A stretch of 61,669 bases of DNA, the filler included, from Stramenopiles sp. TOSAG23-6 (lineage: Eukaryota): assembly GCA_900128565.1 (NCBI GenBank). It is 14 parts of 14 records of this genome, joined end to end, with 100 filler letters (N's around TTAATTAATTAA, not from the genome) between each part and the next. Parts side by side here need not be neighbours in the genome. Positions count along the whole stretch, not along the records: positions 17,716 to 22,034 come from LT637195.1; positions 22,135 to 26,452 come from LT637196.1; positions 26,553 to 30,867 come from LT637197.1; 11 more parts are not named here. One strand, given 5' to 3'. Below are positions 5,474 to 61,145 of the stretch, one piece after another; position 1 is the first letter of the stretch, and each line of letters begins with the position of its first letter. The position numbers and the translations under genes were made by a program. Under the pieces are notes generated by a model, which saw nothing but the letters and a program-made list of their open reading frames with translations, did no database searches and was not told the DNA's origin.

Positions 5474-7467
<1,994 letters not shown>

Positions 7468-17615: not shown

Positions 17616-17769
17616 NNNNNNNNNNNNNNNNNNNNNNNNNNNNNNNNNNNNNNNNNNNNTTAATTAATTAANNNNNNNNNNNNNNNNNNNNNNNNNNNNN
17701 NNNNNNNNNNNNNNNGTACGAAATTTTGTACCTAACGATTTTTTTTTCAAATATTTTTCCAAAATACGT

Positions 17770-18608
17770 GTGTTTATTACGAAATGCAAGTATTGTATCC
17801 AGGTTTTGCCCGTACGAGTAAATCTTAAAGCATGTACGTTTTCATCATGAATTTCAAATTTATTTTATTTTTTCGTACGAAATTTCATACCTAACGTTTT
17901 TTTTTACGAAAAAAAAAAAAAAAAAAAAAATTCACAATACATCTGTTCAGGCGATTGAACGACGTGTCGAGGAAAAAAAGAAAGAAATGCAAGATTTTAG
18001 TGAAGAATTCCAGCAAGCAAAAAAATTATTTGAAACAGCAAAAAATCTGTGGGAAAACGCAAAAGAAAAATATGAATTTGAGAGCAATAATGTTGATGTA
18101 TTATTACAAGCTCGAGATGACGTATACCAAAGTGCTCATGTTCCCGAGTCAATTGCTCTTGCAAAACTACCTATAATTGTGCGTTTCATTTTAATTTCAA
18201 ATTTATTTTTTTATTTTTTTATGTTTTGGTAGAAAATTTCGTACCTAACAAAAAACATTTCAAACTTAAAATGATATGGTTTCACAATACTTGCGGAGGT
18301 TCCAACAGGTTTAAAACCAGGAGATAAATTTGAAATGGTATCAATGAACGGCCAACCATTTAAAGTAAATGTCCCGTATAGAATGCCAAAGCCTCGTCCA
18401 GTTACAAATGATGAAATTTCAAGTCCTACGTCGAACACCTGGTTATTACGTGTACGTTTTCATTCTTTTTTTCATACGAAATTCCGTACCTAACGATTTT
18501 TTTGGAAATAATAACGATTTTTTTTTTGAAATATTTTTCACATTACATGTCGAACAGCCAGTGGAAAGTTCGAATGAAGAAAGTTCATCCAATTGTAAAC
18601 AACAATAA
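17770..18608 (+). CDS. Uncharacterised protein, 3' part (4 exons)
   Basis: Exons 17770-17833, 17943-18178, 18293-18451 and 18549-18608 join in frame (..LKA/SVQAIERR..LPII/AEVPTGLKPGDKF..WLLR/VEQP..stop). Confidence 0.75.
17834..17942 (+). mobile_element. Repeat-family intron, GT-AT
   Basis: Phase-1 join is in frame; the nearby AG at 17950 is out of frame. Confidence 0.82.
18179..18292 (+). mobile_element. Repeat-family intron, GT-TT, flanked TT/TT
   Basis: ATT|GTGCGT...CACAATACTT|GCG. Confidence 0.8.
18452..18548 (+). mobile_element. Repeat-family intron, GT-AT
   Basis: CGT|GTACGT...CACATTACAT|GTC. Confidence 0.78.
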
Positions 18609-18644
18609 AGAATGCAAATTTCAAAACTTTTTTCTGGTGTTTTT

Positions 18645-20646
18645 CTAGTTTTGTGCAAATTCAGATAACATTTTGTGACAATCAGAATATTTTTTTCTTG
18701 CCACCGCACATGTATTTTGGAAAAATATTTTCAAAAAAAAAAACTTAAATTTGTTAGGTACAAAATTTCGTACGAAAAAAAATTCAAATTTGAAAAAAAA
18801 TAAAACATACTGAGCTGCGTCTTTGATTTCTTATTTAGGATGGTCATTGGACTCATTCCATCATTTGCTCGGTCATATAATGCATCTTTTTTTGTCATCT
18901 CTTTTGCTTTCCGCAACGCTTCTTTTGAAAATGGATAAAGAGAGATGTCAATAATATATTTTGGAAAAATATTTCAAAAAAAAAAATTTCAATTTGTTAA
19001 GTACAAAATTTCGTACGAAAAATAAATTCGATTTTTTTGTGAAAAAAAAAATAAAACATACATATCTGCCTTTTTATTTTCCACTTCTGTATCTTCAAAT
19101 ATTACTGGTGCAATCGTGGGTAAATAACGCATAAGTAGTTTCAAAATTTTGATATTTCCTTTTTCTGCTGCAACATGAAGCGCATTGTATCCATCAGTAC
19201 AAGTACTATGAAAAAATATTTTCAAAAAAAAAAACTAAAATTTGTTAGGTACAAAATTTCGTATGAAAAAATATAAATTTGAAATTATAATGAAAACGTA
19301 CGAGCTAAGCACACTAATGAACCAGATCGAAGTAAAATATCAACAATTTCATATTTTTCTAAACGAGTAGCAATATATAAAGGGCAATAGCCTCCCCTTT
19401 GTTGTATGTTTACATCCGCTCCGGCTCGAGCTAGCATTGCCACACAATTTTGATACCCACCAAGTACCGCAGCAAATATTGGGGTACATGTATTATGAAA
19501 AAAAAATTTAGTTAAAAAATTTGTTAGGTACGAAATTTCGTATGAAAAAAACAATTAGAAATTCATATCAAACGTACATCCACTTTTTTCATCAATAACG
19601 TTTATATTTGCAGAACTTTTGAGTAACCAAGATAGACAATCTCTTCTACCTCTGCGAGCAGATATAAAAAGGGCTGATATGCCATCTGTGCTTGTTTTCG
19701 TATCTATGTATTGTGAAAAATATTTTTTTTTTTTCAAATTTAACTTTTTTTTGTTTGGTATGAAATTTTGTAGTAAAAAAAAAAATCATGATGAAAACGT
19801 ACATATCAGCAGGAATATAACAATCCAGTAAAAATTTAACTACGTCAGCATGTCCATTTGATGCAGCGAGATATAACGCTGAGTGTCCATTGTCATCAGT
19901 AACATCAACTTTACTCCCCGCTTTTACTAAATATCGTATTGCACATATATTATAAAAAAAATTAAATTCGAAATTTGTTAGGTACAAAATTTCGTACGAA
20001 AAAAAAACAAAATTCGAAATTCATAATAAAAACGTACCTATCTTCCCCCGTGTAGCCGCAAGTAAAAAAGCAGTGTCCTCAGAATCCCCAACTCTTTGTA
20101 AGTGAACATGTATTGTGAAAAAACATTACAAGATTTTTGTTATTAGGTACAAAATTTTTCAAAAAAAAAAATAGACAAAAAAAAAAGAAAACGTACATCT
20201 GCACCAGCTTTTAAAAGTTCACGGACAGATTTTGAATTTCCTGATATTGCCGCGGCGTGCAAAGGTGTTGTATTGTTATATATCAGAGGTTTATCTACAT
20301 TTACACCCGCTTCAATTAATTTCCGCACACAATTCGACCCTGACAGACCTGTTGCTTTCCAACAAGCCAAAAATATTGGCGAAATACCATTTTCAAGAGA
20401 AGTATTTGGATCTCCACCTGATTTAATCAGTAGTGAAAGAGCATTGATGCGCCCCTGTGCAGCAGCTGTACAAATAGGCGTGGCCCCACACTCTATTGGC
20501 AAGTTTACACTAGCCCCACTATCTATTAAACGTCGGAGGGAATCACAATCTCCAAACTGAGCATTTGAATATACTTCTTCAGAATTTCTACTCAATATTT
20601 TATTACCCCAGTCATTGGCGGCAGAGCTTTGCTGGTTTGTGCTCAT
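18645..20646 (-). CDS. Ankyrin-repeat protein, 8 exons
   Basis: TPICTAAAQG, TPLHAAAISG, SALYLAASNGH, TPIFAAVLGG, NALHVAAEKG. Seven family introns: 20108-20196, 19945-20037, 19706-19802, 19488-19577, 19201-19301, 18954-19061 and 18710-18810. Confidence 0.9.
18710..18810 (-). mobile_element. Repeat-family intron, GT-AT
   Basis: TQL S|AVARKK in frame to the stop codon. Confidence 0.78.
18954..19061 (-). mobile_element. Repeat-family intron, GT-AT (identical to 21729-21836)
   Basis: KAD I|IDISLYP in frame. Confidence 0.75.
19201..19301 (-). mobile_element. Repeat-family intron, GT-TT
   Basis: Restores LA R|TDGYNALHVAA. Confidence 0.82.
19488..19577 (-). mobile_element. Repeat-family intron, GT-AT
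   Basis: Restores KSG C|TPIFAA; ATGTAC is duplicated at both junctions. Confidence 0.88.
19706..19802 (-). mobile_element. Repeat-family intron, GT-AT
   Basis: Restores PAD I|DTKTSTDGISALF. Confidence 0.85.
19945..20037 (-). mobile_element. Repeat-family intron, GT-AT
   Basis: Restores ATRGKI G|AIRYLVKAG. Confidence 0.82.
20108..20196 (-). mobile_element. Repeat-family intron, GT-AT
   Basis: Restores KAGAD|VHLQRVGDSEDTAFLLAA. Confidence 0.86.
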
Positions 20647-20730
20647 TACTTACGATGCGCCTTTGGATATTGGCTGAAGCGAGTAGTATTCCTAGGTAGA
20701 ACAAGGCTAATATGAGTCTCAAAAATCTTT

Positions 20731-20776
20731 CTGACTTCGTAACTTGTGTGACCTGACTTCGTAACTTGTGTGACCT
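20731..20776. repeat. 22-bp tandem duplication in a divergent intergenic region
   Basis: CTGACTTCGTAACTTGTGTGAC x2. Confidence 0.9.
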
Positions 20777-20958
20777 ATGTCCTGCGACACGTGTAACTGT
20801 AAAAACGTCTGAAATAGCTAGAAAAATACCTCTCGAAGAACGAGCTGTTTGTGACTTCTTTATTTAGACATTCCATCAAAATTGTGACATGCTTTGATTT
20901 TCCTTTCAATATGATTAGATTTGTAATATGATCTAGTATTCAATTTATCAATATTCCA

Positions 20959-21979
20959 ATGTATACGCAGCATTTTCCAAGCCAAGAACAATATCAGCAA
21001 TATGGACACTCTCAACAATTTAGACAGCCTCAACAATATCAACAACAACAATTTAGACAGCCTCAACAATATCAACAACAACAATTTAGACAACCTCAAC
21101 AATATCACCAACAACAATTTAGACAGCCTGAACAATATCAACAACAACAATTTAGACAACCTCAACAATATCATCAACAACAATTTAGACAACCTCAACA
21201 ATATCAACAACAACAATTTAGACAGCCTCAACAATATCAACAACAACAATTTAGACAACAATATCACCAAACGCAATATGAAATTCAACAACAGCCGCTT
21301 AGATATCAGACACAATATGGAGATGTTGTTCTCCAGTCAAACGATCGATCTTTTTCTCGAAGCAAATCCCCATTTAGACCAGTCTCTGCGTCAAGCGATG
21401 AATCCATTAATTCTCAAAGCAAAAACGCTGTATGTTTTATTTTTTTTTTTAACAAAAAAATCGAATTTTTTTTTCGTACGCAATTTTGTACCTAACAAAA
21501 TTTTTTTGAAATATTTTCCAAAATACCTACAACTCAAGACAAGATGTCAGAAAAAGAATTTAAATTAGCAAAAACAGCAAAAGAAAGTATAGCTTCAGTA
21601 ATGGAACTAGTATCCAAATTTCGGAATAAGGATTTTTGTATAACGCAAGCAAGCAAAGCAAAATCTGCAGCAAATCATGTTGCTAAAGAAAGTGCTCTCT
21701 CCGCTTGTAAAGTGACGGAAGAAGCACTGTATGTTTTATTTTTTTTTTCACAAAAAAATCGAATTTATTTTTCGTACGAAATTTTGTACTTAACAAATTG
21801 AAATTTTTTTTTTTGAAATATTTTTCCAAAATATATTATTGACATCTCTCTTTATCCATTTTCAAAAGAAGCGTTGCGGAAAGCAAAAGAGATGACAAAA
21901 AAAGATGCATTATATGACCGAGCAAATGATGGAATGAGTCCAATGACCATCCTAAATAAGAAATCAAAGACGCAGCTCA
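20959..21979 (+). CDS. Gln-rich repeat protein, 3'-partial
   Basis: QFRQPQQYQQQ repeats; introns at 21430-21528, 21729-21836 and from 21980. Confidence 0.7.
21013..21270 (+). repeat. 33-bp coding tandem repeat, about 7.5 copies
   Basis: CAACAATTTAGACARCCTCAACAATATCAACAA. Confidence 0.95.
21430..21528 (+). mobile_element. Repeat-family intron, GT-CT, flanked CT/CT
   Basis: GCT|GTATGT...CCAAAATACCT|ACA gives KNA|TTQDKMSEK. Confidence 0.8.
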
Positions 21980-22034
21980 GTATGTTTTATTTTTTTTCAA
22001 ATTTGAATTTTTTTTCGTACGAAATTTTGTACCT
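21729..22034. repeat. 306-bp inverted duplicate of 18756-19061 (intron + exon + partial intron)
   Basis: Appears identical, including the rare GTACTTAAC core variant. Confidence 0.92.
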
Positions 22035-22134
22035 NNNNNNNNNNNNNNNNNNNNNNNNNNNNNNNNNNNNNNNNNNNNTTAATTAATTAANNNNNNNNNN
22101 NNNNNNNNNNNNNNNNNNNNNNNNNNNNNNNNNN

Positions 22135-25100
22135 ATTGTCGCGTTTCTCTTGACTTCGACGACTTTTGTACAAAGCTTCGCCACTGATTTTTGTAGGAAC
22201 GCTCAAGTATTTGAGTGCTGCTCTCAATGGAGTAGAGTATAAGGCTGCAAAAAATTGGCACGGGACAGATGTTATTGAAGTAAGCGTTGATGATTTGGGG
22301 AACACTGGAGTTGGAGGGGCTTTGACTGATGACATACTTCTAACTGTACATGTCACCCCAGTAGATGACAAGCCTCTGGTCATGATTTCAGAAACATCAG
22401 TGGAAACAGTCGAGGATACAACGTACATTGTGAATGAAATAGCAATCTCAGTACCAGATGGACTCTATGGACCTTGTCATAATTCAATGAATGATATAAA
22501 CAACAGCCACGCAATACATTATGGCATTCCATGTGAAAATAAAACTGATGCAGGAATGGAAAATGTAACTGTAACAATCCATGTTGATAACGGTACATTT
22601 TCTATTACTAGAGGAATTTCAGATTTAGTATTTACAAATGGTGATGGCGAACTTGATTCAACTATGACATTTGAAGGACCTGTAGATGCTATTAATAATG
22701 CGCTGAAAGAATCACTTTATTTGCCTAATTTAAATTGGCACTCGAATTTATCGACATTAGATCAAATACGCGTCACAGTGGTTCATGGGACAGTAAGCAA
22801 TAGTCAAGTATTAATGGTTCGAGTAATTCCTATGAATGATGCACCTGTTTTAGGTGTACCTGGAGCACAATACGACCCCATTTATAAGGTACAGGATAAC
22901 TTATCCCAACGGGTGAATGGCATAGACGTGATTTCTATTCCTGAGGATATCAAGCGCATTATTACAGGGATTTCAGTTCGAGATGTTGATGCGGATGATA
23001 ATAGTGGTTTGATCAGTGTATCTATATCAGTATCACACGGATATATTTGGTTATCCGAGTATTCACCAATACAGGAAATGTTGGAGGGTACTGGATTTCG
23101 TGATAGGAGTGTATCTTTTCTTGCAACAGTGGCGAATGCAAATCTTGCATTGAAATATTTAACATACGAAGGGGAACTTGATTACTACGGCTCAGATGCC
23201 ATATCGATTATAGTAGATGATAATGGTAATAGTGGGGAATCACCAGGTCGATGTAAAGTCAATGGAATTACCTCTACAGAATTACTACACTCTGCGGTGT
23301 GCATAAGTACATGTAGCGATGAAAATATTGATTTAAATCTTGGTTCTTCTGCTTGCACTGGTGGATATTGCATTGATTCTCTTGGCAATCCTATGATAGA
23401 TAAGAGACCAAATGAGAGTACTTGCAACGCAAATGATGGAGAGCAATGGGTCATCCGAGTTTGGACACAACGTGAATGGATTACTTCTGGTACATCGACT
23501 TCGCTTTTAGATGAAGTTTCTATCCCTATCTCTGTTGAAGCTGTTAATGATGAACCAGTTATTAGTATTCCACTTACACTCCAAGAATGCCTCGAAGATG
23601 GAAAGCTTAAATTAGTGGGTATACAGGTCATTGATGTTGACTCGCCTTCATTACTGGAAGTTACTGTTGAAGTTGGCGAAGGTATGATTACTCTAACTGA
23701 GATGGTAGGATTGGAAATGTTGGAAGGTGACGGAAATCAAGATGGATTTACTAAATTCAAAGGTAGTGCAGAAAACATTAGTCGTTCTTTAAACAATTCT
23801 GAATATCAGCCAAGATTTAGATGGAACAGTATGAACCGCGCACCCGATACAATCACTATTACTGTTCGCGACAATGGTAATTCTGGTGCTGGTGGAGAAA
23901 ATATTGTCAAAGCTACAATACACGTAAATGTATTACCAGTAAATGACGCACCTGTGATTCATTTACCAGGAATGGTCAAAGAATATGTTTATGATGGCCG
24001 TGAAGAAACTGTCAGTGTAGAAACATTAGTTTTGTCGGAAGACTCGCTACTTGAAATGCACGACATTTCTATAGTGGATCCCGATGCAGCCGAAGCTTTC
24101 GGTGGCATGTTGAAGGTATCTCTGACTTCCAGTCGTGGTACAATATCTTTGTCATCTATTCGGGGGGTGAAATTTATTTCTGGTAGTGGCACGAATGATC
24201 GTTCAATGACATTTGAGGCGGCACCTGATATGGTAGATGCCGCACTATCGACTGTGACATATCGACCACCACTGAACCAATATGGCGCTGACTCAATAAA
24301 TGTTGTAGTCAGTGACTATGGTAATACTGGTGCTATCCAACCAGGCATCCGGACTGCGGCGCATATAGGTACAGACGAGCGACAATGTATTCGTCTTACT
24401 GCCGCGGATGGTACTGATGCAACATCAGCGACTGGACAATTTAAGTTATCNACTGATGGTGCTACATGTAAACCTGCNGTAGATATCCAATTTTGCTTGA
24501 ATCAAAAGGTTGCCGGTGAGTGCACAGCCGCCAAGCACTGTACGTGGAATGGCACTACGGCATTGTGTACAGCTGCTCCAGAAAGTTGTTCCGATGTTGT
24601 CTCACCAACTCAATTAAATTGTACGACATCAGCGCATTGTATTTTTTCTCCGCAAGCTGAAACAGCATTTATAGATGTTACATCAGTATTGACCCTTGAT
24701 AATGCATCAAATGGCAAAGGAACAAATAATATTTTGGCTCATGCAATACAAAGTATTGTTGGAGAGCAAGATCCAAAACTTCAAGAATTAGGTAATACAG
24801 GACGAGAAGTACACCACCCGCTGATTGTAAGAACTTCCCACCACCCTCAATATCTTCAGTGGTGTGTCCAATTTCCTTCTTCACTTGGAGATATTAAACA
24901 ACTGACTGTTCCAGAAGTTCCACTTAGTTCAAATACAAATCCTATGGAAGCATTGGTATGGACAGAAGTCAATGGTAAAAAGTCAATTCTTAACGAGCTT
25001 TCTGATTCCCAAATCTTACCTATTTCAATTACAGCTGTCAACGATGCACCAAAATGGAACTTACCATTAAGTACTATCCCAGTGCATGAGGATAAGGTTG

Positions 25101-26434
25101 CGCCCATTAAAGGCATTTCTTTTGTTGATAGTGACACAATAATGAATCCGGAAATGATCTTGCAAATAGATATATCTGTCAAATATGGACGAATTTCACT
25201 GACGAATGTTGATGGGCTAACATTTAGCGAAGGTGGCGTACAACCTGGAGATCATGATAATAGCGGAACATGGGCATCAAAAGTACGTTTTACGGGTACT
25301 CAACTACAGCTAAATCGTGCTCTCGCGGGATTGTTGTATGCTCCTTCGTTAGATTGGAATTCATCAATGAATGCTAAAGAAGGTTTTGATACAATATCAT
25401 TATTAGTTGATGATCTTGGTAACTACGCCGACAGTACTAGCGCACCATTAGTAGCATCTACAGAACTACACTTGCAACGTGTTGAAGGCATCAATGATGC
25501 ACCTATTGTTCATGTCCCAGGCATGGTTTTGACAGAAGGAGCATGTGAATCCGAACTCGACGCTTCTCAAGTTGAGCATTCCCATACAAGTCCGCACGTA
25601 AGTGCAGCTGGTCGTTGCAAAACGTTAGTCTCAATTTCTCCGCTTTCTGCATTTGAAGATGAATACTTACCAATTCCAGGTGTATGGATAGACGATCCTG
25701 ATTCACACGAAATATTTGGTGCCAGTATGAATGTTACAATGAGTTTACTGCATGGTAGTGTCTCAATTACAACAAGTGATGGGCTATTTTTTGAAGATGG
25801 AAATGGTACGGATGACAACCGACTTGTTATCATTGGCCCTTTGAAGCGTATTAATGAAGCTCTCGGATCTCTCAAGTACAAAGGACCTCAAGATTGGTAT
25901 GGAGCGGATCATTTGACAATATTTGCTGATGATCGAGGTTTTAGTGGCCAAGGACCAGCTTTAAATGATACAAAGACAATACCTATTCATGTTGAGCCTG
26001 TGAACGATTCTCCATACTGGGCAAATTGTCCAACTACACAATTAAATTTGCACGAAGATGGTTCGCTGAAACTGAATGGGTTTAACGTCATTGATATTGA
26101 CGCAACAAAGTTTGATATTCCCCGTGTATTTGGACAATCTCAATCACCAACTGTCGATGATAACGATCAAGGTGAGTTATGGGTTACAATTGATCCCGAT
26201 GTAGGTTTTATCGCAATAGGAGATCGCGATGCTGGCGAATCGCGTAAATCTGCAGAGCGACTTACATTTAGTCGCGGAGATCCTAGCAACGGAGTCATTC
26301 AACCTGGAAGACGTAGTTTACAAGGACCCTTTGTACAAGGAACTTCTTTCAGTGGTTTAGTTCGGGACGTAAACCTTGCATTGATGGATTTGATATACAT
26401 CCCGAAGCTCAATGTGGTAACTTGGAAGTATTGA
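22135..26434 (+). CDS. Very large cadherin-like/Ig-repeat surface protein, internal fragment
   Basis: About 8 repeats ending in V(N/D)DxP with DxD and DxGNxG motifs; Cys-rich inserts; no introns. Confidence 0.85.
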
Positions 26435-26706
26435 AATGGGTGAGAAGTCAAANNNNNNNNNNNNNNNNNNNNNNNNNNNNNNNNNNNNNNNNNNNNTTAA
26501 TTAATTAANNNNNNNNNNNNNNNNNNNNNNNNNNNNNNNNNNNNNNNNNNNNCGATTTGGGATATTAATTAAGAATATTGACACGAAATCCGTGCCAATA
26601 TGTGTATTTCGTGATGTTTGGCCATTATTCAAATGGTAGCAGATCGACCTCATTCGATCGATACCGTTCGTGTGTCTGTGTGGCTACTTACAACTAAAAT
26701 TGTTAG

Positions 26707-29667
26707 ATGATGAAGCGAATTTTTGCTTCAGTAAAGAAACATTCTTCATTTTTGACACCATGTCGTCAATTTACTACAGCACCACACGAAGATCTACGAA
26801 AGAACATAAAATTTTTGGGTTGGGCTTTAGGAACCTGTATACGAGATGAGTCAAAGGCTGCATATGATACTGTGGAAAAGCTGCGTGGACTGGCAAAAGA
26901 ATGGCGTTTGGAGAAGAAAGATCAGAAGAATGAAAAACTAAATGAAATTATCACTATTTCATCTTCGCTTTCTCCTGGAGCAATACATAAAGTTGCTCGC
27001 GCATTTACCCATTTTTTAGCTTTAGCAAACTCGGCTGAAGCGCATCATAGACTAAAACGAAGGCGCGAAGATGATTTGCAGATTGATAAAACTAATACTA
27101 ATACGCTTGAAGACTACCCCCAACCTCTAAACACGACGCTTGGTACATTTCAACAACTACTTGGTGTGCAAGAAAATAAATACACAACGGGCCCGATGGG
27201 AGTCGGAAAAGCAACAGCGTCACCAAAACAAATTTACGAAGCGCTTTGTACTCAGGAGGTTAACATTATTCTAACAGCACACCCGACCGAAGTGAATCGA
27301 CGTACGGTGGTAAGACGTCATATTGATATCGGGAACGCACTTGCTGCACGAGATCGGAAAGGGATGACATGGTTCGAAAAGAAAGAGGCTGAAGAGCAGC
27401 TTCGACGTCAGGTAGAGACTCTATGGTGGACAGATGAAATTAGAAGAGCAAAACCTACTCCAAACAAAGAAGCTGCTCACGGCATTGAAATCGCGGCAAA
27501 CAGCCTCTGGCCCGCTATTCCAAAAGTTTTAAGAAGAATTGATGATGAACTCTGTTCAATGACGGGAATTCAAAAGCCACTTCCACCTGATATAGCGCCA
27601 GTAAAGTTCGGCAGCTGGATGGGAGGCGACCGTGATGGAAATCCTAATGTTACGCCCAAGATCACTAGAGAAGTTGCAATCATGTCTCGTTTACGAGCTG
27701 CAAAATTAATCAAAGAGGCTATGATTGATTTACGCGATAACTTATCTTTGAGTGCAAGGAAAGCCACGCCCGAATTATTAGCCTTATTACCACAGAGGGA
27801 AGAGAATAATTCTCAAGAGCATTTAAAGCATCAACCCTATGCTCATCTATTTCATCATTTAGCCCAGCAATGCGATGCCACAATTTCGATTTTGGAGAGT
27901 GGCAGATTCTATCCATCTCAAGAAGACGATTTGATTCATAATGTTGAACCTTTATTGTCGAGCGAAGAGCTTGTAAATACATTAATGGTGGCTTATAATT
28001 CTCTCATAGAAGCTGGAAGGAATACTATTGCCGATGGTAAACTTCGTGATGTCATTCGCCAAGTTAAATGTTTCGGTCTCGCTCTTCTCCCCCTTGATTG
28101 TCGAAATGAGTCCGTACGGCATAGTGAAGCTCTTGATGCAATAACACGCTATTTAGGCATTGGTTCTTATTTAGATTGGGATGAAGATACACGAATGAGA
28201 TGGCTCTTGAAAGAGCTCTCAGAAAAACGTCCATTGCTGCCGACAAAAGGATTTAGCAATAATGATTGTTGGACCGACGGTCAACATTATGCTAAACTTG
28301 GCAGTATGTTTACCACTGTAGTTTGTGACACGCTCGGCACATTTGATATGATTGCCTCTTTACCTCCAGAGAATCTCTCAGCATATGTTATCTCGATGGC
28401 ACAGAATGCCTCTGATGTATTAGCGGTAAGACTGCTTCAATCCGAGGCTGGTGTAGCCGTTCCGATGCGAGTTGTGCCTCTTTTCGAGACTTTAGATGAT
28501 TTGCAAAGGGCTCCTACTATAATGCAATCTTTGTGGGATATTCCATGGTTTAAGGGCGACATTAATGCCAAACAAGAAGTCATGCTTGGCTATTCCGATT
28601 CTTCGAAAGACGCAGGCCGACTTGCTGCTGCATGGGCTCAATACATTGCACAAGAGAAACTAGTCAACTCTTCACAAGCTGTTGGTGTAGATCTAACATT
28701 ATTTCATGGCAAAGGAGGAACAGTTTCACGCGGTGGTGATCCATATGTATTCAGAGCCATATGCGCACAACCTTATGGTACAGTCAATGGTAAGTTTCGA
28801 ATCACAGAGCAGGGAGAGATCATCACACAAAACTATGGAAATCCTGGTATTGCAGAGCGACACTTAAATACATACATTGCTGCGATTCTTTACGAGAAAT
28901 TTTTACCAAAAGGAAACAGACAACCAAAAGAAGAGCACCGACTGCTCATGGATGCGCTTGGTGATCGGAGCTGTCAAGCCTATCGTCGCATTGTGCGTGA
29001 TGAGCCTGCATTTATTCCGTACTTTCGCTCAGCTACACCTGAGCTTGAAATCGCGGCTTTGAATGTGGGCTCGAGACCGGCAAAGAGGCGACCGACAGGA
29101 GGGGTAGAAACGCTTCGTGCAATACCTTGGGTTTTCTCTTGGGCACAGACAAGACTCAACTTGACTGCATGGTTAGGTATTGGTACAGCTTTTGAGTCCC
29201 TTGGTCCACTAGAACGCAAAACTTTACAAGACATGTACTCTCATTGGCCATGGTTCACCGCTCTTGTTGATGTTGTTGATATGGTTCTCGCGAAAACCGA
29301 AAGTGATATAGCCGAAAACTATGATCGACAACTTGTGGAGACACTAGAGAAGGGCGAGAGTACAGCTGGATTTGATGCCGATGAGCTTCTACATCTTGGT
29401 AAAACTCTTCGAAACGAATTAGCCGTAACAGAAAGAGAACTACTGTCTTTACGAGGATATAGCACGCCGCAAGAAGAAAATGCAACCTTGCAAAGCGCAC
29501 TCTTGGTACGCAATCCATACGTGGATCCATTGAATGTCTTTCAGGCTGAAGTACTTCGAAGACTTCGTGAAAATAAGTACAAAGACGAAAGCGAAAAGGC
29601 TGTTCTAGAAGATTCTTTGGTTATTTGTATTAATGGCATTGCTAACGGGCAGAAAAATACAGGATAA
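26707..29667 (+). CDS. PPC: Phosphoenolpyruvate carboxylase, probable mitochondrial presequence
   Basis: LTAHPTE, FGSWMGGDRDGNP, QEVMLGYSDSSKD, FHGKGGTVSRGG, LRAIPWVFSWAQTR, C-terminal KNTG; intronless. Confidence 0.98.
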   Translation: MMKRIFASVKKHSSFLTPCRQFTTAPHEDLRKNIKFLGWALGTCIRDESKAAYDTVEKLRGLAKEWRLEKKDQKNEKLNEIITISSSLSPGAIHKVARAFTHFLALANSAEAHHRLKRRREDDLQIDKTNTNTLEDYPQPLNTTLGTFQQLLGVQENKYTTGPMGVGKATASPKQIYEALCTQEVNIILTAHPTEVNRRTVVRRHIDIGNALAARDRKGMTWFEKKEAEEQLRRQVETLWWTDEIRRAKPTPNKEAAHGIEIAANSLWPAIPKVLRRIDDELCSMTGIQKPLPPDIAPVKFGSWMGGDRDGNPNVTPKITREVAIMSRLRAAKLIKEAMIDLRDNLSLSARKATPELLALLPQREENNSQEHLKHQPYAHLFHHLAQQCDATISILESGRFYPSQEDDLIHNVEPLLSSEELVNTLMVAYNSLIEAGRNTIADGKLRDVIRQVKCFGLALLPLDCRNESVRHSEALDAITRYLGIGSYLDWDEDTRMRWLLKELSEKRPLLPTKGFSNNDCWTDGQHYAKLGSMFTTVVCDTLGTFDMIASLPPENLSAYVISMAQNASDVLAVRLLQSEAGVAVPMRVVPLFETLDDLQRAPTIMQSLWDIPWFKGDINAKQEVMLGYSDSSKDAGRLAAAWAQYIAQEKLVNSSQAVGVDLTLFHGKGGTVSRGGDPYVFRAICAQPYGTVNGKFRITEQGEIITQNYGNPGIAERHLNTYIAAILYEKFLPKGNRQPKEEHRLLMDALGDRSCQAYRRIVRDEPAFIPYFRSATPELEIAALNVGSRPAKRRPTGGVETLRAIPWVFSWAQTRLNLTAWLGIGTAFESLGPLERKTLQDMYSHWPWFTALVDVVDMVLAKTESDIAENYDRQLVETLEKGESTAGFDADELLHLGKTLRNELAVTERELLSLRGYSTPQEENATLQSALLVRNPYVDPLNVFQAEVLRRLRENKYKDESEKAVLEDSLVICINGIANGQKNTG

Positions 29668-29791
29668 ATTATCTATATTCCTTGATATTACAATTTTCGA
29701 AAATACAGTACGTATTGCAAAGAGTAAAGGTATAGACATTAATTCTGCAAAGCCAAATCGATTGATTGGAACTTGGAAAAGTCCCGAAAAT

Positions 29792-30145
29792 ATGTCTATA
29801 GAAGGCTTTTCATCTCAACATGGATATCGTATTTATTTGGATGTCAAGGGTACATGGATTGCAGAGGAGTGGACGTTTGTTGCTGGTGATGATGAGGAGG
29901 ATCGGTTTAATCAACGAGGAGGTTACTGGGTGATTAAAGATAAGAATAACCCTAAACAAAATGTAGATGAAAATATATCACAAAATATAACTCTTTATCT
30001 GAAGGATAGTTGTACAGCAAACAACACATCAAATAAACAAAAAGTAATCTGTACGTTATGGAATAACCCTAACCCTAATGAAAATTCTGATACATATCAA
30101 ATATTAGAATTTTTTGGTAAAAGTAGTGAAAATTATCATCCATAA
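29792..30145 (+). CDS. Hypothetical small protein (start uncertain)
   Basis: Open frame 29633-30145 with protein-like composition; first ATG outside PEPC at 29792. Confidence 0.4.
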   Translation: MSIEGFSSQHGYRIYLDVKGTWIAEEWTFVAGDDEEDRFNQRGGYWVIKDKNNPKQNVDENISQNITLYLKDSCTANNTSNKQKVICTLWNNPNPNENSDTYQILEFFGKSSENYHP

Positions 30146-30213
30146 ATTATTGGCATTAGGTTAGGGTTAATGATTTCTGTTATGACATTAGTTCTAACAA
30201 CCTTATCTGTAAA

Positions 30214-30801
30214 TTATAAAATAAACTCATCNTTANTNAATGATTNANCTTTTCTATTATCTTGTTTTGTCGATTTCGTGTCGTTGACGTCATCAGCAGA
30301 CGGATCATCATCATTGAAAAATGATTTCGAATTTACATCAAAAATAGAAGTAGGACTGTATTTTGAAAAATATTTGAAAAAAAAAAACTTGAATTTGTTA
30401 GGTACAAAATTTCGTACGAAAAAAAAATCGAATTTGAAAAGAAAAAGATACCTGCTCAACTCTTCTTCATATTTTTGGTCAAATGACACATTGAGAACAT
30501 TCATAGATACATCATTTACTTTATCTTTTAAATGTTGCTCATCATCCGGATGTTTTTTGTCTTGATTTGATTTATTTTTTAAATGTTGCTTATCATCCTC
30601 CCACATTTTATGACGTTTCAAAATTTTCATTTCTTGATTAATTCTTGAACGTTTTTTTGTTTTTTCTTTGGACAGTCTCAAAATATCATGATCAAGTTCA
30701 GAAAGAAGTATAGTGTTTTCAAAATCAAAAAATGATTTATTGTGTATATCCATTAAATCATTATATTGCCCCAACGTTTGAATGATTTCCTTATCAAGAC
30801 G
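30214..30801 (-). CDS. Coiled-coil protein, 3' part
   Basis: Exons 30801-30452 and 30355-30214; the upstream family intron ends in AT at 30802. Confidence 0.6.
   Translation of the reverse strand, partial: RLDKEIIQTLGQYNDLMDIHNKSFFDFENTILLSELDHDILRLSKEKTKKRSRINQEMKILKRHKMWEDDKQHLKNKSNQDKKHPDDEQHLKDKVNDVSMNVLNVSFDQKYEEELSRYLFLFKFDFFFVRNFVPNKFKFFFFKYFSKYSPTSIFDVNSKSFFNDDDPSADDVNDTKSTKQDNRKXXSXXXDEFIL
30356..30451 (-). mobile_element. Repeat-family intron, GT-AG, flanked AG/AG, 96 nt (3n, stop-free)
   Basis: AG|GTATCT...TTTCGTACGAAATTTTGTACCTAAC...CAAAATACAG|T. Confidence 0.85.
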
Positions 30802-31057
30802 ATATATTTTGTAAAAATATTTCAAAAAAAAAACTAAAATTTGTTAGGTACAAAATTTCGTACGAAANNNNNNNNNNNNNNNNNNNNNNNNNNNNNNNNN
30901 NNNNNNNNNNNTTAATTAATTAANNNNNNNNNNNNNNNNNNNNNNNNNNNNNNNNNNNNNNNNNNNNTTTTTTTCAAATTCGATTTTTTTTTTTTTGAAA
31001 ATTTTGTACCTAACAAATTTAAGTGTTTTTTTTTTGAAATATTTTTCCAAAATACAT

Positions 31058-36622: not shown

Positions 36623-38348
36623 AAATAATAAAAACTTCAAAGAAAATAATGTAGTCAGTGGTTCCTCTTTTCTTATGAAAGACAAGTCTTCAATTGAAGG
36701 ACATTATGATGATGATGTTTCTATTAAAAGTGACATTATTACGTCTAATATTTTGGGAATATCAAATAATGAAAGAAAACATAAATCAAAAAAAGTAAAA
36801 AATTCAAAAAATACTATACCAAAATTAAATACTACTACTCACCCTAACCCTGAATCTTCTTATTCTACTCATTCTATTTTACATAAAAACAGAAACAAAT
36901 CTAATGTCTCTGAAGGGGTGAAACATAAAAAATCTTCACAAAGGATAATAATAAAAAGTAATCAAAAAAAGAATCAAAAGCAAAATATAGAAAAATCATT
37001 TGAAACAAATAAAACAAATAAAACAAATAAAACAAATAAAACAAATAAAACAAATAAAACAAATACATCAAAGAATGTCTACAAAGGTTCCAATACTACT
37101 ACTAGTTATAAAAATAATACAATAAATCATAATAAGAAGAAACAAAAACGGCCACGTGGCGGAGCCCAACAACGTCTTTTATCTCGTGTGAAACTACAAT
37201 TAACACAATTACATCCAACGCCAATAGCTGCAATAAAAGATATACTAAGTTGTACTCCTAGTAGTAGTAATACTAATATTGAGACTATTGAAACAAATAG
37301 TAAAGAGTATACAGAAATGAATATATTACCAAGAAACATTCATAATGGATTAAATATGCTTGGTTTAGATATTTCAAAAGTAGATGCAAAAATGATTTAT
37401 ACAATAGCAAAAGAGCGTGATGATAATAATAAAAAAAATATCGTTACAATAGAATCAATTTGTAATGCTATTTTTGGATTGAATGATTCAAATGATTCAA
37501 ATACTACTTCTAACCAAAACAAACAACAAAATTCTTTTAATAATTCAATAAATGAAAATAATAAAAACAATAAAAATAATAAAAACAATAAAAACAATAC
37601 AAACAATAAAAATAATAAAAATAGTAAAATACACTCAAAAGAAAAGAGACAACAAAGAGGACAAAATAATATTGAAAATAGTTTTATGGAAGATAATTAC
37701 AATAATGAAAAAAATACAATGAATGAATCAAAATCTTTAATCAATGATGATTTTGATACATCCTCTGATGAAGATGAACGAAATAACCCTAATAATCAAA
37801 ACCCTACACATAATAATAGTGATGATTTTGATACATCCTCTGATGAAGATGAACAAAATAATACTAGACCTAATAATAGTGATATATCTCAAATAATTAA
37901 CAAAGATGACATTATGAAATCTTCAAAGATAACAAAACCAAATGAAACAAATTTTGATGAAACATTGCCAAACACTAATGAAACAGATAAATGGCCAAAA
38001 ATTGTCAAGAAAGCAGATGGTTCAGTGCATATCACAAAAAAATGTGGGGATACTGAAACTGTACTCAAAGATGGAATGCGTATTGAAATATGTAACTGTC
38101 AAAAACATAGATTTATTAAAAGGCAAAAAGCACCAGATGGCACAATTATTGAATCACTACGAAATGGTATTCGTATACAAATCATGCAAGATGGGACACA
38201 AATTGAAGTTAGACCTGATGTATTTTTAATTTACTATTAATTTTTTTTTTTTTTTTTTTTAAAAAAATTTTTTTTTTTTATAGATAATTTTTTCCCCAAA
38301 AAAATTTTTTTTTTTTTTTTCATAAAAAATTTTTTCCCTAAAAAAATT

Positions 38349-38386
<38 letters not shown>

Positions 38387-38922
38387 TTTTCCACAATACA
38401 TGGAAGTTCTCTACAAACAAATCCAAGTGGTACAACAATTGAAATACATACAAACGGTACCAGAATACAAACAAATATAGATGGATCAAAAATTGCACAA
38501 ACTCCTGATGGGTCAACATTACAGATTAATACTAATGGTAATACAATTGAAACAAAACAAGATGGTACTCGAATACAAACAATGAAATCAGGAGTATGTT
38601 TTATTTTTTTTTTTACAAAAAAATCGAAATAATTTTTAATTTTTTTTTTGGTAAAAAAATTTTGTACCTAACAAATTTGAGTTTTTTTTTTTTGAAATAT
38701 TTTTCCAAAATAAAGGTACGCATTGAAGTTCGTCCTGATGGTAGTGAATTACAAACAAATTTGGATGGAACAAAGATCATTAGTGATACATCAGGTGATA
38801 GACAGACAGTCCTGCCCTGTGGGTGTACTCATATTTTGTTCTCTACAGGAAAGGAAAGACAAAATTTATGCCAAGAACATCTGAGAAGTGCAAACACTGC
38901 TGCAGAGTTACATCAATTATAA
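35856..38922 (+). CDS. Low-complexity protein with N-terminal PGPGxY (STPG/SHIPPO-like) motifs and C-terminal xDGTxI beta repeats (Tcp10/CENPJ-like)
   Basis: GPGAY, GPGSY; repeated PDGT/QDGT units; introns at 38220-38401 and 38594-38715. Confidence 0.7.
38220..38401 (+). mobile_element. Repeat-family intron (core degenerated to homopolymers), GT-AT
   Basis: Restores EVRPD|GSSLQTNPSG, matching the internal repeat EVRPDGSELQTN. Confidence 0.85.
38594..38715 (+). mobile_element. Repeat-family intron, GT-AG
   Basis: KSG|VRIEVRPDG; the AG sits in the same aligned position as the AT of other members. Confidence 0.88.
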
Positions 38923-43820: not shown

Positions 43821-43909
43821 GTATGTTTTATTTATTTTTTTTTCGTACGAAATTTTGTACCTAACAAAATTTTTTAGATTTTTTTTCAAAATATTTTTCC
43901 AAAATACAT
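43821..43909 (+). mobile_element. Repeat-family intron, GT-AT (possibly chimeric)
   Basis: Near-consensus sequence; the downstream exon 43910-44031 is open but is not CK2-beta. Confidence 0.75.
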
Positions 43910-44188: not shown

Positions 44189-45612
44189 AAATATTACATT
44201 TATTTTAGAAAAATATTAAAAAAAAAAAAAAACTAAAATTTGTTAGGTACAAAATTTCGTACGAAAAAATAAATTCGATTTTTCTGTAAAAAAAAATGTT
44301 AGGTACAAAATTTCGTACGAAAAATAAATTCGAAATCGAAAAAAATCGTTAGGTACAAAATTTCGTACGAAAAAAAAAATCGTTTTTTTCTGTAAAAAAA
44401 ATATAAAACATACACTATTATTTGTATTTGAAACTGTACCAAATTCAGTTTGTGTAGCTCCTGGTACGACATTTGTTAGTAAAATACCTTTGAGAGCATA
44501 TTGTATACAAAAATATTTCAAAAATGATTTTTTTTTGTTAGGTACGAAATTTGGTATGAAAAAAAAAATCAATTCTTTTTTTGTGTTTTTGTTTTTTTTT
44601 GTTTGGTATGAAATTTTGTATGAAATGTTTAATGTAGAATTAAACTATTAAGTAATGAAAAACGTACTAATTCATAATGTAATGATTGACAAATAGAAGT
44701 TGTAAATGCTTTTGTAGCTGCATATAGAGCATTTGTAGGTTGTGGACTAATTCCAACAATTGAACTAATAACAATAATTCGACCATTAGGGTTAGGGTTA
44801 TTTGTACAAAAAAAGTTTTGTACAGTTTTTGTTTTTGTTTTTGTTTTTGTTTTACTATCATTATTATTATTATTAGTAGTAGTAGTAGTACTACTACTAC
44901 TACTACTACTACCATTATCACTACAATCATCATTATTATCATTATTATTATTACTCCTTATCATATGATTTGCAATAGAATATAATAAATTCGTTAATGA
45001 AAAAACATTTAACGATAAAATTTTGTCGATTTCTTTCTTGTCTAAATCTAAAAATAATTTTCTTTTTGCAACTCCTGCAGCACAGACTAAAAGTACAATA
45101 TGACCTGTATTATTTGTTATTTTTTGTATATGGTTTTGTATATAAGAGCCAACATCAAAATCGGAGGTTAAATCAAGAGATAAATATGCTATATTTTGTG
45201 TTTTTTTTTGTGTTGTTCTTGAATTAGCAACGCATTTTGTATCTAATGAGTTTCCAACTTTTTGCTTATTTTTACACGTAAAAGTCAACTTGGATGATAA
45301 TAATTCGCTTTGAAGTTGTTTTAACTTTTCTGTACGTCTTGCAACCAACAGGATATTGAAACCTCTTTGTGACAAATCTCGAGCACATTCTAAACCTATA
45401 CCTGAACTCGCGCCTGTTACTACAGCCCATCCATTCATTGATGGTTCTAGTTTTTTAATTTTACGTAGATTGAATGAGTGTAAAGCATATGATACGACTT
45501 GAAGTATTGTAATGAACACAAGCATTCGTTTAATAAACACTGTAAACACAAGAGTATGATATATAGATGAATCAAACATGATTGCTATAATAGTACACGC
45601 CATGGCTAACAA
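44189..45612 (-). CDS. Short-chain dehydrogenase/reductase (KCR/17beta-HSD-like), partial
   Basis: [46 protein letters not shown] introns at 44498-44667 and 44198-44413. Confidence 0.92.
44198..44413 (-). mobile_element. Repeat-family intron with three tandem cores, GT-AT
   Basis: TTCGTACGAAATTTTGTACCTAAC x3 at ~50-55-nt spacing. Confidence 0.82.
44498..44667 (-). mobile_element. Repeat-family intron, GT-AT
   Basis: Restores LHYEL|ALKGI; the next AG is out of frame. Confidence 0.85.
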
Positions 45613-51789: not shown

Positions 51790-52677
51790 CTAAGTCCAAA
51801 AAAGATCTTCTTCTTGAATAAAATGAAATATTTGTTTTGATTTCCGAGATTTTTTTTTTTTTGTAGGGTAAGATTTCTTCTTTATATCATTTATATCAAA
51901 CTTTGCAGAATAAATCTTTCTTTTATTATTACCTGGTACTAGTATATTCGGAATTGAACAATCTGTACCATATTTTGTACCTAATGATTTTTGAAAAGCA
52001 ACTTGAAAATTTTGACATTGTACGTCTTCCAAAATATAACTTTTTCTAGCACTTGTAATACACTCTGTATCTAACGATTTATTGAATAGAGACTGACTTT
52101 TACAAGTACTTTTTTTTTTCGTTTTCAATAGTTTTTTTTTATTTCTTTTTTTTTTTGTTTTGTTTGGCCCGATTTTATTTTGTTTTGTACCAAATTTTGT
52201 ACCTAACGAGTTTAACATTGTTGAGGAAGGATCAAATGTATTTTTTTTAATAGTATTTAAAGATTCTGTGATGTGATATCGATTTTGCTGATCAAGTAAA
52301 AGATGTGTTTGATCATTTTTGTCATTCTCTGTGACTTTTATACCAAATTCCGTACCTAACGAATTTCGAATTTGTTCTGTGGCATGTCTCTTAAGGTGTT
52401 GGTGTAAAGAATATTTTTGATTATATATAATATTCTGTACTTGATTGTTTTGGAGCTGTATATGGGATGCTGTATCTTTATCTATCTTGCTGTGAGAATA
52501 TACTTGATGTTTGTTCATTTTTTCTAACTTTAAAAAGTATTTTTGTGCATGCGTCCGAATTTGTGTCAGAGATCTTGTCTTTACAATATTACCTATAAGT
52601 TTCCAATTTTTACCATATTGTTCAACGCCTCTCAAAAATAGTTGATGTTCATGAGCTGCCCAAGTTCCAGAATTCAT
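51790..52677 (-). CDS. SHAQKYF-class single-Myb transcription factor
   Basis: GTWAAHEHQLFLRGVEQYGKNWKLIGNIVKTRSLTQIRTHAQKYF. Confidence 0.93.
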   Translation of the reverse strand: MNSGTWAAHEHQLFLRGVEQYGKNWKLIGNIVKTRSLTQIRTHAQKYFLKLEKMNKHQVYSHSKIDKDTASHIQLQNNQVQNIIYNQKYSLHQHLKRHATEQIRNSLGTEFGIKVTENDKNDQTHLLLDQQNRYHITESLNTIKKNTFDPSSTMLNSLGTKFGTKQNKIGPNKTKKKRNKKKLLKTKKKSTCKSQSLFNKSLDTECITSARKSYILEDVQCQNFQVAFQKSLGTKYGTDCSIPNILVPGNNKRKIYSAKFDINDIKKKSYPTKKKKSRKSKQIFHFIQEEDLFWT

Positions 52678-55900: not shown

Positions 55901-57034
55901 TAGAATCGCATCCTTCGAAACAAGCATACATGAAATGTTAAGAAAATATATATGTGTTTTTTGTTACGTACGAAATTTTTTTTTTTGAAATTTAAAAAAA
56001 AAAATTTCAAAAATTTTCAAAAATTTTCAAAAATTTTCAAAAATTTTTTTTTTTTGAAATTTAAAAAAAAAAAATTGAAATTACGACGTACATGTCGTCT
56101 TTATATCCCGGAATCAAATTATTTTTTACACCAAAAGAGTGCATTCTAAATAATGAACATGTACCCAGAGTTTTTCTAGCATCGGCTTTATCAACATTGA
56201 ATGTATGATAAATATTGAATTTTTTTTTTTTTTTGTTAGGTACAAAATTTACTACAAAAAAAATTGTAAAAATGTATAAAAAAATATTTCAATTTTTTTT
56301 TTGTTAGGTACAAAATTTCATATGAAAAAAACGTACATGATCTACATATGCCATAATTCGTGCTCCAGTCATTCTAGAGACCCAATTTAAAATTGACGGT
56401 TTCACATTAACAAAAACGGACAAACCTGCTTGATACAATAAATCTAAACCAAATTTCGAAACATTTTGACTTACTAGAATTAAATTCGCATGTAAGGATA
56501 TCATGTAAAAACAATATTTGTCATATTTGAAAAAAATATATTAGCTCATCTGGCTTAACATGTGAAAACAACTGAAAATCTTCAACATTTCAAAAAAAAA
56601 ATTTCAAAAAAAAAAAAATTTCAAAAAAAAAAAAATTTCAAAAAAAAAAAATTCAAAAAAAAACATACATGAAATTTTTGCTACTAAAATTTCTAAATAT
56701 TTTTCTTCTTGTTCTAATAATACATCCAATGACGTCATACATCCTTTTTTTCGTTCAAAATTTATCGGGCAGCTCAATAATGTATTTTGTAAAAATATTT
56801 AAAAAAAAATCGTTAGGTACAAAATTTCGTACGAAAAAAAATTGGATTTGAAAAAAAATAAAACATACATAGAATTTTTGGTCTTTCGATAAAGTTTTTC
56901 ATTTTTCTATGCGACAATTGTTTTCTAAAAATTACACCATATATTGAAAAAAATATTTTTAAAAAATTTGATTTTTTTTGTTAGGTACGAAATTTACTAT
57001 GAAAAAAAAATTACTTATGAAAAAAAATTTAAAA

Positions 57035-60699: not shown

Positions 60700-61145
60700 A
60701 CATCAACTTGACTCGATCGATCCCTTTCTTTAGGTACAAAATTTCGTACTAAAACCACCCACGAAATGATAAAACGATTGAGCGATACCGGGTAACAGAA
60801 ATCGAAAACGTATTGCATTTTTAATTGTATAAATGTGTCTAAATCATCAAATTTCAAAAATGCAATGCATGTAAAAATTCTGATTGTATACGAAACCAAA
60901 TCTAAATAATAATAATTGATCAGAACCTGGTGTACAGCTCCACACCAAAAACAAAGATGCGACATAACACTGAACAAACCTGCCTGCTCTTGCAAGAATT
61001 TTTGAATTTTTGAATTCAAATTTTGAAATTCAAATTTTTCATTGGACGAAATTTTTCAGTAACCCGTACTACTACTACTAATACCAATACAGATAGAACA
61101 AATACTATCGCAAAGCATACTACTAATCTTTCTCTAGTGTGTGTC

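Follow-up and report, generated by a model that had tools for sequence, protein, structure and literature searches.

A multi-copy family of short GT...AT introns with introner-like features in an uncultured stramenopile

Introduction

The introners of Micromonas pusilla and Aureococcus anophagefferens make 3-nt duplications, bear inverted repeats and carry one splice site while co-opting the other (PMC11282704), and those of Amoebophrya (Syndiniales) show inverted repeats of 8–20 nt, direct repeats of 3–5 nt and variable termini in an organism in which no U1 small nuclear RNA (snRNA) was detected (PMC7789003). Here we describe a family of repeated short introns in a 61,669-nt stretch of DNA from Stramenopiles sp. 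TOSAG23-6 (GenBank assembly GCA_900128565.1), hereafter the window, which, as far as those parts of the articles go, stands closest to these two systems and differs from them by a canonical donor and branch site, a YAT acceptor and the lack of a consistent duplication. With the Micromonas and Aureococcus introners it has in common that a short element recurs as introns in unrelated genes of a marine protist, with short inverted ends and an apparent border repeat, but both splice sites lie inside its repeat unit, the acceptor is AT, the border repeat is absent from 11 of 28 introns, and the inverted repeat spans 3–8 nt. With Amoebophrya it shares repeated non-canonical introns, inverted ends, direct repeats that overlap the borders and no obvious transposase (PMC7789003); unlike there, donor (GTAYGT), branch site (CTAAC) and acceptor (YAT) are fixed and a single family dominates. 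On balance, and with modest confidence, we lean toward the view that every copy is a spliceosomal intron complete in itself and belongs to one introner-like family, which prefers sites of the form AT^G(T) (^ marks a cut or junction here and below) and does not take its acceptor from a duplication.

Three further groups of unusual introns invite comparison. Fritillaria borealis has AG-AC and AG-AT introns that are thought to derive from miniature inverted-repeat transposable elements (MITEs) and whose exon context mirrors the intron end (PMC11282704). Large-scale use of non-AG acceptors (AT or AC there) and a link to transposon-like ends are common to both cases; there, however, the host is an animal, the donor is AG and many unrelated sequences are involved, whereas here a stramenopile uses a GT donor in one conserved family. 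The introns of euglenids and of hemistasiid and eupelagonemid diplonemids have non-GT-AG ends, end pairing and repeats at their junctions, and an origin from MITEs has been proposed for them (PMC12621601, PMC11282704). The present introns resemble them in their non-GT-AG ends, some end pairing and short junction repeats, but those nonconventional introns have no conserved donor or U1 complementarity and pair strongly at their ends, whereas ours have a yeast-like donor and branch site and pair weakly: GTATGT or GTACGT opens 20 of 28, a CTAAC-like motif is found in 26, and the ends pair in three of eight folds. Fungal introner-like elements, finally, are multi-copy and carry all their own splice signals without clear duplications or inverted repeats; they resemble the present family in being multi-copy introns with their own signals, and differ in being longer and GT-AG, against GT-AT and about 90–115 nt here. 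GT-AT termini, which our introns share, are reportedly on record among the rare minor-class (U12-type) introns. That class has an RTATCCTT donor and a TCCTTAAC branch site 10–20 nt from the 3′ end, and we rejected it for the present family on its GTAYGT donor and a branch A located 31–52 nt from the 3′ end.

A GT-AT introner family is not described in the literature that we consulted on introners, non-canonical introns and marine or uncultured stramenopiles, supplements aside, nor in the consulted portions of PMC5778133, PMC12614181, PMC8163842 and PMC12130899, again excluding supplements. Large introner surveys discard families with unfamiliar splice sites unless these are supported by RNA (PMC12130899), which could explain why such a family was overlooked earlier. 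If the findings below were true genome-wide, a spliceosome would be routinely using a non-AG acceptor (GT-AT) together with a textbook donor and branch site, and the introns of this organism would stem largely from one proliferating element. This bears on burst-like intron gain and on 3′ splice site recognition in the second splicing step. The exon context has shifted along with the intron end (AT^GT for AG^GT), which makes the disputed origin of proto-splice sites testable in a natural variant.

Source material and scope

In the window, 14 contigs, each about 4.3 kb long, follow one another in order of size with linkers of the form N44-TTAATTAATTAA-N44 between them, and its GC content varies from 22 to 42% across 2-kb bins. 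Parts of one contig, 17716–22034, are present in seawater metagenomes and poly(A) metatranscriptomes. Comparison with assembled read contigs was made for this contig, and the joints given below are among the best-supported rows; X3 denotes a DNA-like run, X6 and X7 RNA runs. The run contigs show few differences from it; a 1033-nt DNA-run contig (20010–21042), for example, has 7 other letters. Intron borders were set by reading frame, RNA or homology, with repeat or domain continuity added where available, for 28 introns in genes including those of ANK, MetRS, SDR, PIP-kinase and others; borders that rest on frame alone are open by ±3 nt. Four copies, at 18452, 21430, 43821 and 56668, were left out of these counts, that at 56668 owing to its ambiguous 3′ end. 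The contingency test of upstream against terminal dinucleotides was restricted to the 28 resolved introns.

One repeat family and its anatomy

The 24-nt core of the element, TTCGTACGAAATTTTGTACCTAAC, has 38 matches at three or fewer mismatches as compared to none in 100 shuffles, and an nhmmer profile built from 17 copies, which match it by construction, marks 54 stretches with E≤1e-3, distributed over 10 of the 14 contigs. Together with the 28 introns, these counts support a multi-copy intron family in unrelated genes, of the introner-like kind that a sequence-only reading of the window had proposed. Seven of the 28 contig ends fall within an element. Depth in bins that cover an element exceeds that of exon bins about 10^3-fold, both in the DNA-like run and in the RNA runs; such depth does not equate to copy number.

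An alignment of 23 introns reveals three conserved blocks, namely the core and the two ends, which read GTATGTTTTATTTTTTTT or GTACGTTTTCAT at 5′ and GAAATATTTTTCCAAAATACAT or TTTTCACAATACAT at 3′. These blocks are separated by spacers that vary in length and carry variants common to unrelated genes, such as ACAAAAAAATCGAATTT and CAAATTYGAATTTT, that define a subfamily structure. Pairwise identity among the best 15 intron pairs is 0.72–0.83. The core opens with a perfect 12-base palindrome (TTTCGTACGAAA), for which we know of no role in splicing, and a 6-bp hairpin, GUACGA/UUGUAC, stands immediately 5′ of CUAAC in seven of eight RNA folds. Internal tandem duplication has produced two or three cores in some introns (55294–55449, 44200–44413). 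Among the 28 donors, GTATGT and GTACGT occur ten times each and eight hexamers are singletons; a CTAAC-like motif lies 31–52 nt before the 3′ end in 26 introns. The terminal dinucleotide is AT in 21, AG in four and TT in three, with T as the last base in 24, and the four bases ahead of it are ATAC in 13. AGs that occur shortly after the branch site (e.g., TTTAG, TTAAG) are not used as acceptors.

Could likeness of this kind have arisen with no mobility at all, among old introns kept similar by selection on splice signals in an AT-rich genome? Conservation is concentrated at the 5′ end, the branch site and the 3′ end, in blocks resembling splice signals, and the identity among even the best pairs is limited, both as such convergence would have it. 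The spacers, however, are not signals and nonetheless share subfamily variants across unrelated genes; the palindromic core is present; and copies or fragments occur outside sense introns, with contigs breaking in the repeat at the seven ends mentioned above. We consider signal convergence very improbable.

The mechanism that we propose instead is that the repeat unit carries everything needed for its own removal: the donor GTAYGT, a T-rich spacer, the 6-bp hairpin, the CUAAC branch site, a T run and, 31–52 nt after the branch A, an acceptor YAT^ within the element (AT in 21 of 28 introns, AG or TT in the others). The host U2-type spliceosome would then remove exactly GT...AT, and copies would sit preferentially at exon sites AT^G(T). 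Since the preferred upstream AT equals the last two bases of the element, most borders would look duplicated.

Excision of exactly GT...AT

Three RNA contigs on the ankyrin gene contain joints that skip elements, at 20109–20197, 18954–19061 and 18710–18810. Repeated bases permit several registers for each joint, and the one register common to all three gives GT...AT. The fourth line of evidence is homology: in MetRS, the cut 6649^6759 alone restores a 15-residue motif of homologues (P0002 and others), which makes exact the junction of the intron at 6650–6758 (+ strand; GTATGT...CCAAAATACAT; AT/AT, where the upstream exon dinucleotide is given before the terminal intron dinucleotide).

On the − strand of the ankyrin gene, the intron at 18710–18810 (GTATGT...CCAAAATACAT) is a CA/AT mismatch, and RNA contig X6 record 9 joins 18811 to 18709, a joint that was mapped via a perfect inverted copy at 21729–22034 (see below). 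For 18954–19061 (−; GTATGT...CCAAAATATAT, AT/AT), RNA contig X7 record 17 covers 18849–18953 plus 19062–19159. For 20108–20196 (−; GTACGT...CACAATACAT, AT/AT followed by GT), X6 record 12 combines 20198–20487 with 20038–20108, the register being ambiguous within ATGT. Other introns of this gene, which has Pfam Ank matches, were placed with the help of the ANK consensus spacing. At 19201–19301 (−; GTACGT...CATAGTACTT, TC/TT mismatch), the frame is kept and the ankyrin spacing between G..L and ..LH fits this cut alone; at 19488–19577 (−; AT/AT), frame and ankyrin continuity agree (...EKSG^CTPIFAAV); and at 19945–20037 (−; GTACGT...ATAATATAT, AG/AT mismatch), 98 codons stay open and continuity is again kept (GKIG^AIRYLVKAG). 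Frame also places 19706–19802 (−; AT/AT) and, on the other strand of the same contig, 17834–17942 (+; GTACGT...CACAATACAT, AT/AT), where it continues into the next exon with phase 0 at 18179.

Where does the repeat unit itself end? In the DNA-like run, 35 contigs from other copies cease to match precisely at the 5′ G of 18810 and 27 begin their match precisely at the last T of 19706; at 17834, where the exon ends in CAT, contigs extend 2–3 bases further (45 and 32 contigs). These limits indicate that the repeat unit is GT...AT, often with AT before it.

The border match and what it means

The sequence-only reading had reported that in 23 of 37 introns the last two intron bases repeat the two exon bases before the GT, and had taken this as a 2-nt duplication that supplies the acceptor. 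The match itself is confirmed in 17 of our 28 introns, comprising 15 AT/AT, one TT/TT (18179–18292) and one AG/AG (30356–30451); the CT/CT case of that reading is not counted, two frames being open there. The exon context is likewise clear: AT precedes the donor in 16 of 28 introns, while only 12.2% of exonic GT are preceded by AT (binomial p=2e-8), and GT opens the next exon in 11 of 28, where 4.7% would be the baseline; this share and that of the border matches are close to the earlier proportions (about 16 of 37 and 23 of 37). From these two excesses it follows that AT^GT occupies the place of the AG^GT of other eukaryotes, in agreement with the earlier proposal; it would act as a preferred insertion site.

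It is the origin of the acceptor that the new counts call into question. Borders mismatch in 11 of 28 introns, including the RNA-verified CA^GT...AT^GT at 18710–18810, and no duplication of fixed length accompanies every copy. The 12 introns with an upstream dinucleotide other than AT end in AT (six), AG (three) or TT (three), and match it in two; an element that inserts without a scar whatever the dinucleotide, as had been suggested, is at odds with the latter count. With the AT end retained despite a non-AT upstream exon, and the repeat unit ending at GT and AT, the acceptor does not appear to be co-opted from a duplication. The kinds of variant point the same way. Six upstream dinucleotides are two changes away from AT (GG, TC, GA, TA, TC, CA), whereas all seven non-AT terminal dinucleotides are one change away, a pattern that argues for a fixed AT acceptor with point variants and not for a decayed AT duplication.

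We also tried and dropped several variants of the duplication idea. A 4-nt ATGT duplication, which had been floated earlier, predicts an excess of introns with AT upstream and GT downstream, and six are observed where 6.3 are expected if the two are independent. Compensation, in the sense of either upstream AT or downstream GT, has no support (Fisher p=0.69). Greater age of the mismatched copies fails as an explanation, since the CA/AT copy at 18710–18810 is among the copies most like the rest of the family. MITEs of the Tc1/mariner type have the dinucleotide TA on both flanks of their inverted-repeat ends; here the flanks are AT, and a re-parse around an internal TA yields ends without inverted symmetry and misfits the RNA-verified CA^GT, a border that a Helitron-like A^T re-parse misfits as well.

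Several observations nonetheless weigh against a self-contained intron that merely prefers certain sites. The 17 matches exceed the permutation mean of 12.7 (200,000 permutations, p=0.011). Terminal AT is found in 15 of the 16 introns with upstream AT as opposed to six of the 12 with another dinucleotide (Fisher on 15 and 1 against 6 and 6, p=0.023). The correlation which the earlier reading asked after is therefore greater than a shared AT bias would give, although the two non-AT matches taken by themselves reach p=0.13. Pure site preference predicts no such correlation unless intron classes are mixed, and matches such as TT/TT and AG/AG, possibly with the CT/CT case, would be expected of a real duplication. 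Moreover, the exactly fixed junctions number four, the remaining ones being frame-based and open by ±3 nt, and the counts come from 28 introns of a fragmentary assembly in which at least one fold-back join falls within the repeat. Neither insertion polymorphism nor an autonomous partner was seen in the window or among the best-supported rows of contig 17716–22034, and with no Rfam family in the window there is no snRNA to compare with the AT^GTAYGT donor. The residual correlation may reflect a mixture of intron classes, as AG-ending introns tend to follow G-ending exons, or a real duplication that underlies a subset of the copies.

The latter thought, carried to all copies, leads back to a MITE-like DNA transposon with GTA...TAC ends and a true 2-bp target-site duplication, usually AT, of which splicing removes the element plus one copy. 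It would account for the border matches above the permutation expectation, TT/TT and AG/AG included, and for the concentration of AT ends behind upstream AT. It sits poorly with the 11 mismatches, among which CA/AT is RNA-verified and AG/AT and TC/TT are fixed by ankyrin spacing, and with the six two-change upstream dinucleotides, too many for decay of AT in copies that keep their conserved blocks; nor do the non-AT matches, at the p value just given, compel it. Other evidence that bears on this transposon, for which we see perhaps a minor chance, comes from the element ends.

Inverted ends, joined ends and traces of mobility

The GTA...TAC inverted repeat noted earlier is indeed common, with at least three of four complementary pairs between intron positions 1–4 and −6 to −3 in 18 of 28 introns, but it is short: the longer GTATGTTTT/AAAATAC pairing is confined to the GTATG subfamily, and the GTACG subfamily pairs over 3–4 bp. 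In RNA folds the ends pair in three of eight cases, with energies no better than those of shuffled sequences (z 0.0 to −2.0). Such limited symmetry would speak against the duplication-making transposon. When the element ends are joined, on the other hand, ATAC-AT-GTAT results, a perfect 10-nt palindrome (ATACATGTAT), and this is seen in a head-to-tail joint of an RNA-run contig (X6), where 19063 is connected to 18957 by an intervening G and the element strand has ...CCAAAATAC-AT-GTATGTTTT; both count in favor of the transposon. Many joints from 5′ start to 3′ end of copies are found in the DNA-like run X3, for example connecting 18810 to 18953, 18954, 18957 and 18958 in 8, 4, 16 and 4 contigs, respectively. 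They may represent tandem copies, circles or cross-copy mapping; the window sequence itself contains no head-to-tail junction.

Pairing ends and a possible circle raise the question of whether the spliceosome is involved at all, given that structure-guided, spliceosome-free excision has been proposed for euglenid introns. A cut 2 nt beyond the end helix would fit the GUAU/AUAC pairing with a 2-nt 3′ overhang in the three folds, and the RNA-run contig with ...ATAC-AT-GTATG could be a circular intron. Yet the introns conserve both a GTAYGT donor and a CTAAC branch site whose distance is steady, folding does not surpass that of shuffles, the GTACG subfamily pairs over as little as 3 bp, AT ends exist without the ATAC anchor (e.g., 54267–54419, 55930–56091), and head-to-tail joints occur in the DNA-like run too. 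We find this route scarcely credible, and removal by the spliceosome is suggested by the conserved signals.

All 28 resolved copies lie in sense orientation, as is expected from selection under any model. Traces in the other orientation are found in an open reading frame (ORF) with a Myb domain at 51790–52677 (−), the translation of which reads SLGT(K/E)(F/Y)G at three antisense core-like stretches; two of these correspond to antisense profile matches on the + strand, 52169–52215 (E=1.6e-6) and 52324–52367 (E=9.8e-5). The element consensus has one antisense frame without stops, and the SLGT(K/E)(F/Y)G repeats are likely exonised antisense copies. Five same-strand element fragments, two of which contain (TTAGGG)n, are located in ORF-free DNA at 11.5–13 kb. 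The antisense copies and the head-to-tail joints together hint at movement as DNA. We infer that the element is or was mobile, probably at the DNA level.

An alternative is spread through RNA, in which the excised GT...AT would reverse-splice at AT^G(T) and be copied back into DNA, precisely and without duplication. The repeat unit coincides exactly with the excised unit, every resolved copy is in sense orientation, and the window offers neither a convincing duplication nor a transposase, all in line with this route. The antisense cores of the Myb ORF, the ORF-free fragments with their telomere-like inserts and the head-to-tail joints in the DNA-like run are not, selection on a DNA element would equally leave sense copies only, and no reverse transcriptase is seen in the window. 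RNA-level spread strikes us as rather improbable. We would assign a similarly low probability to a more elaborate scheme, in which the main acceptor has shifted from YAG to YAT and the intron load stems from one DNA-level introner, which moves in a head-to-tail form, circular or tandem, and integrates at AT^G by a crossover at the central AT of the palindrome made by its joined ends; the 2-nt border match would then be the overlap of the recombination and not the trace of a staggered cut.

The search for the machinery and for empty sites gave the following. Transposase, integrase and reverse transcriptase domains are absent from the 41 ORFs scanned, a result that carries little weight in 61 kb, though the missing transposase stands on the debit side of the duplication-making transposon just as the antisense copies in the Myb ORF, suggestive of DNA-level insertion, stand on its credit side. 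Weighing both sides, we judge that transposon unlikely and continue to prefer the self-contained intron. No DNA contig lacking an intron is found among the best-supported rows of contig 17716–22034, and the long DNA-run contig (20010–21042) carries the intron. The 24-mer core has no match in metagenome_contigs, viral_contigs and genome_contigs, and a 17-mer has 64 loci in public collections, of which three core-like ones are without the surrounding element.

Further copies, gene models and other observations

First, individual copies outside the ankyrin and MetRS genes vary in how firmly they are placed. The TT/TT intron at 18179–18292 (+; GTGCGT...CACAATACTT) is set by a frame of 66 open codons, which cuts shifted by 3 nt in either direction, or placed 15 nt earlier at ...GATAT^, keep as well; it has no RNA joint among the best-supported rows of its contig, and the exon that follows (18293–18451) has no match among longer proteins. 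The next copy, at 18452–18548 (+; (GT)GTACGT...CACATTACAT), is not counted, two cuts being open with 19 and 33 codons, and neither is the CT/CT copy at 21430–21528 (+), where upstream frames of 167 and 166 codons need different cuts; for the exon after the latter (21529–21726) the closest protein is 36% identical, and no identical one is present in the libraries. The AG/AG intron at 30356–30451 (−; GTATCT...CAAAATACAG) has canonical GT-AG ends, a frame of 35 codons against at most seven for other cuts and a profile E=1.7e-15. In the short-chain dehydrogenase gene, the intron at 44498–44667 (−; TA/AT mismatch) is placed by frame, an adh_short match and the consensus spacing of dehydrogenases across EL^ALKGI..N.V.PG. 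At 38220–38401 (+; AT/AT), IEVRPD^GSSLQTN restores a motif, with an uninterrupted IEVRPDGSELQTN in the next exon, and at 38594–38715 (+; GA/AG mismatch) a family member that ends in AATAAAG is supported by frame, an internal repeat motif and the profile (E=4e-12). The copy at 43821 was considered as a CK2-beta intron and dropped from the counts, the downstream ORF having no CK_II_beta match. A partial copy at 30803–30867 (−), found by profile match, comprises the 3′ half and is truncated by the contig end (...AAAATATAT^CG). In three copies (18452, 48343, 57458) an additional GT immediately precedes GTACG (GTGTACG), and their donor could lie 2 nt upstream. An isolated core-like stretch, TTAGTACGAAATTTTGTACCTAAA, at 60725–60768 is set in GC-richer surroundings that do not resemble an intron.

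Second, the introns have consequences for gene models. The MetRS ORF (5474–7467) best matches the public model P0001, 100% identical over the aligned blocks and therefore from the same or a nearly identical genome, followed by oomycete proteins at 46–49%. These protein matches place the organism among the stramenopiles, and a diplonemid source, entertained at first, was dropped in view of them. P0001 mis-joins the GT-AT intron (HV-FDRIK in place of HWTVDRIK) and drops conserved stretches, from which it seems that the annotation of this genome misses the non-canonical acceptor. Such mis-spliced models have probably lowered the quality of proteomes and of completeness estimates in this uncultured lineage.

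Third, the assembly has left marks of its own. A stretch at the contig end, 21729–22034 (+), is a perfect inverted copy of 18756–19061, whose reverse complement it matches at 306 of 306 bases; it begins at an intron 5′ end and reaches the end of the contig, and probably arose when assembly or amplification folded back through the repeat. The flanks of other copies could have been mis-paired by similar fold-back.

Fourth, 17 telomere-like repeats, (TTAGGG)n of at least 12 nt on either strand, are scattered over at least nine contigs (320, 4057, 6505, 11737, 12066, 12473, 12703, 14358, 30064, 44786, 47789, 51383, 51598, 53656, 54481, 55563, 57702). Some are exonic and in frame, reading DNPNPT (MetRS), WNNPNPNE (30064) and DLGLGLGE (54481), and two are embedded in element-like repeats of the ORF-free DNA. 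The one in MetRS sits in a loop of variable length, where its status as an insertion is ambiguous.

Finally, two long intron-free ORFs are found on GC-richer contigs (about 0.40). One, at 22166–26434, encodes 1422 aa with a bacterial cadherin-like domain; another, at 26707–29667, encodes a phosphoenolpyruvate (PEP) carboxylase, the nearest Atlas clusters of which are bacterial. The two element copies on the PEP carboxylase contig mark it as eukaryotic; the cadherin-like contig, which has no element copies, could be foreign.

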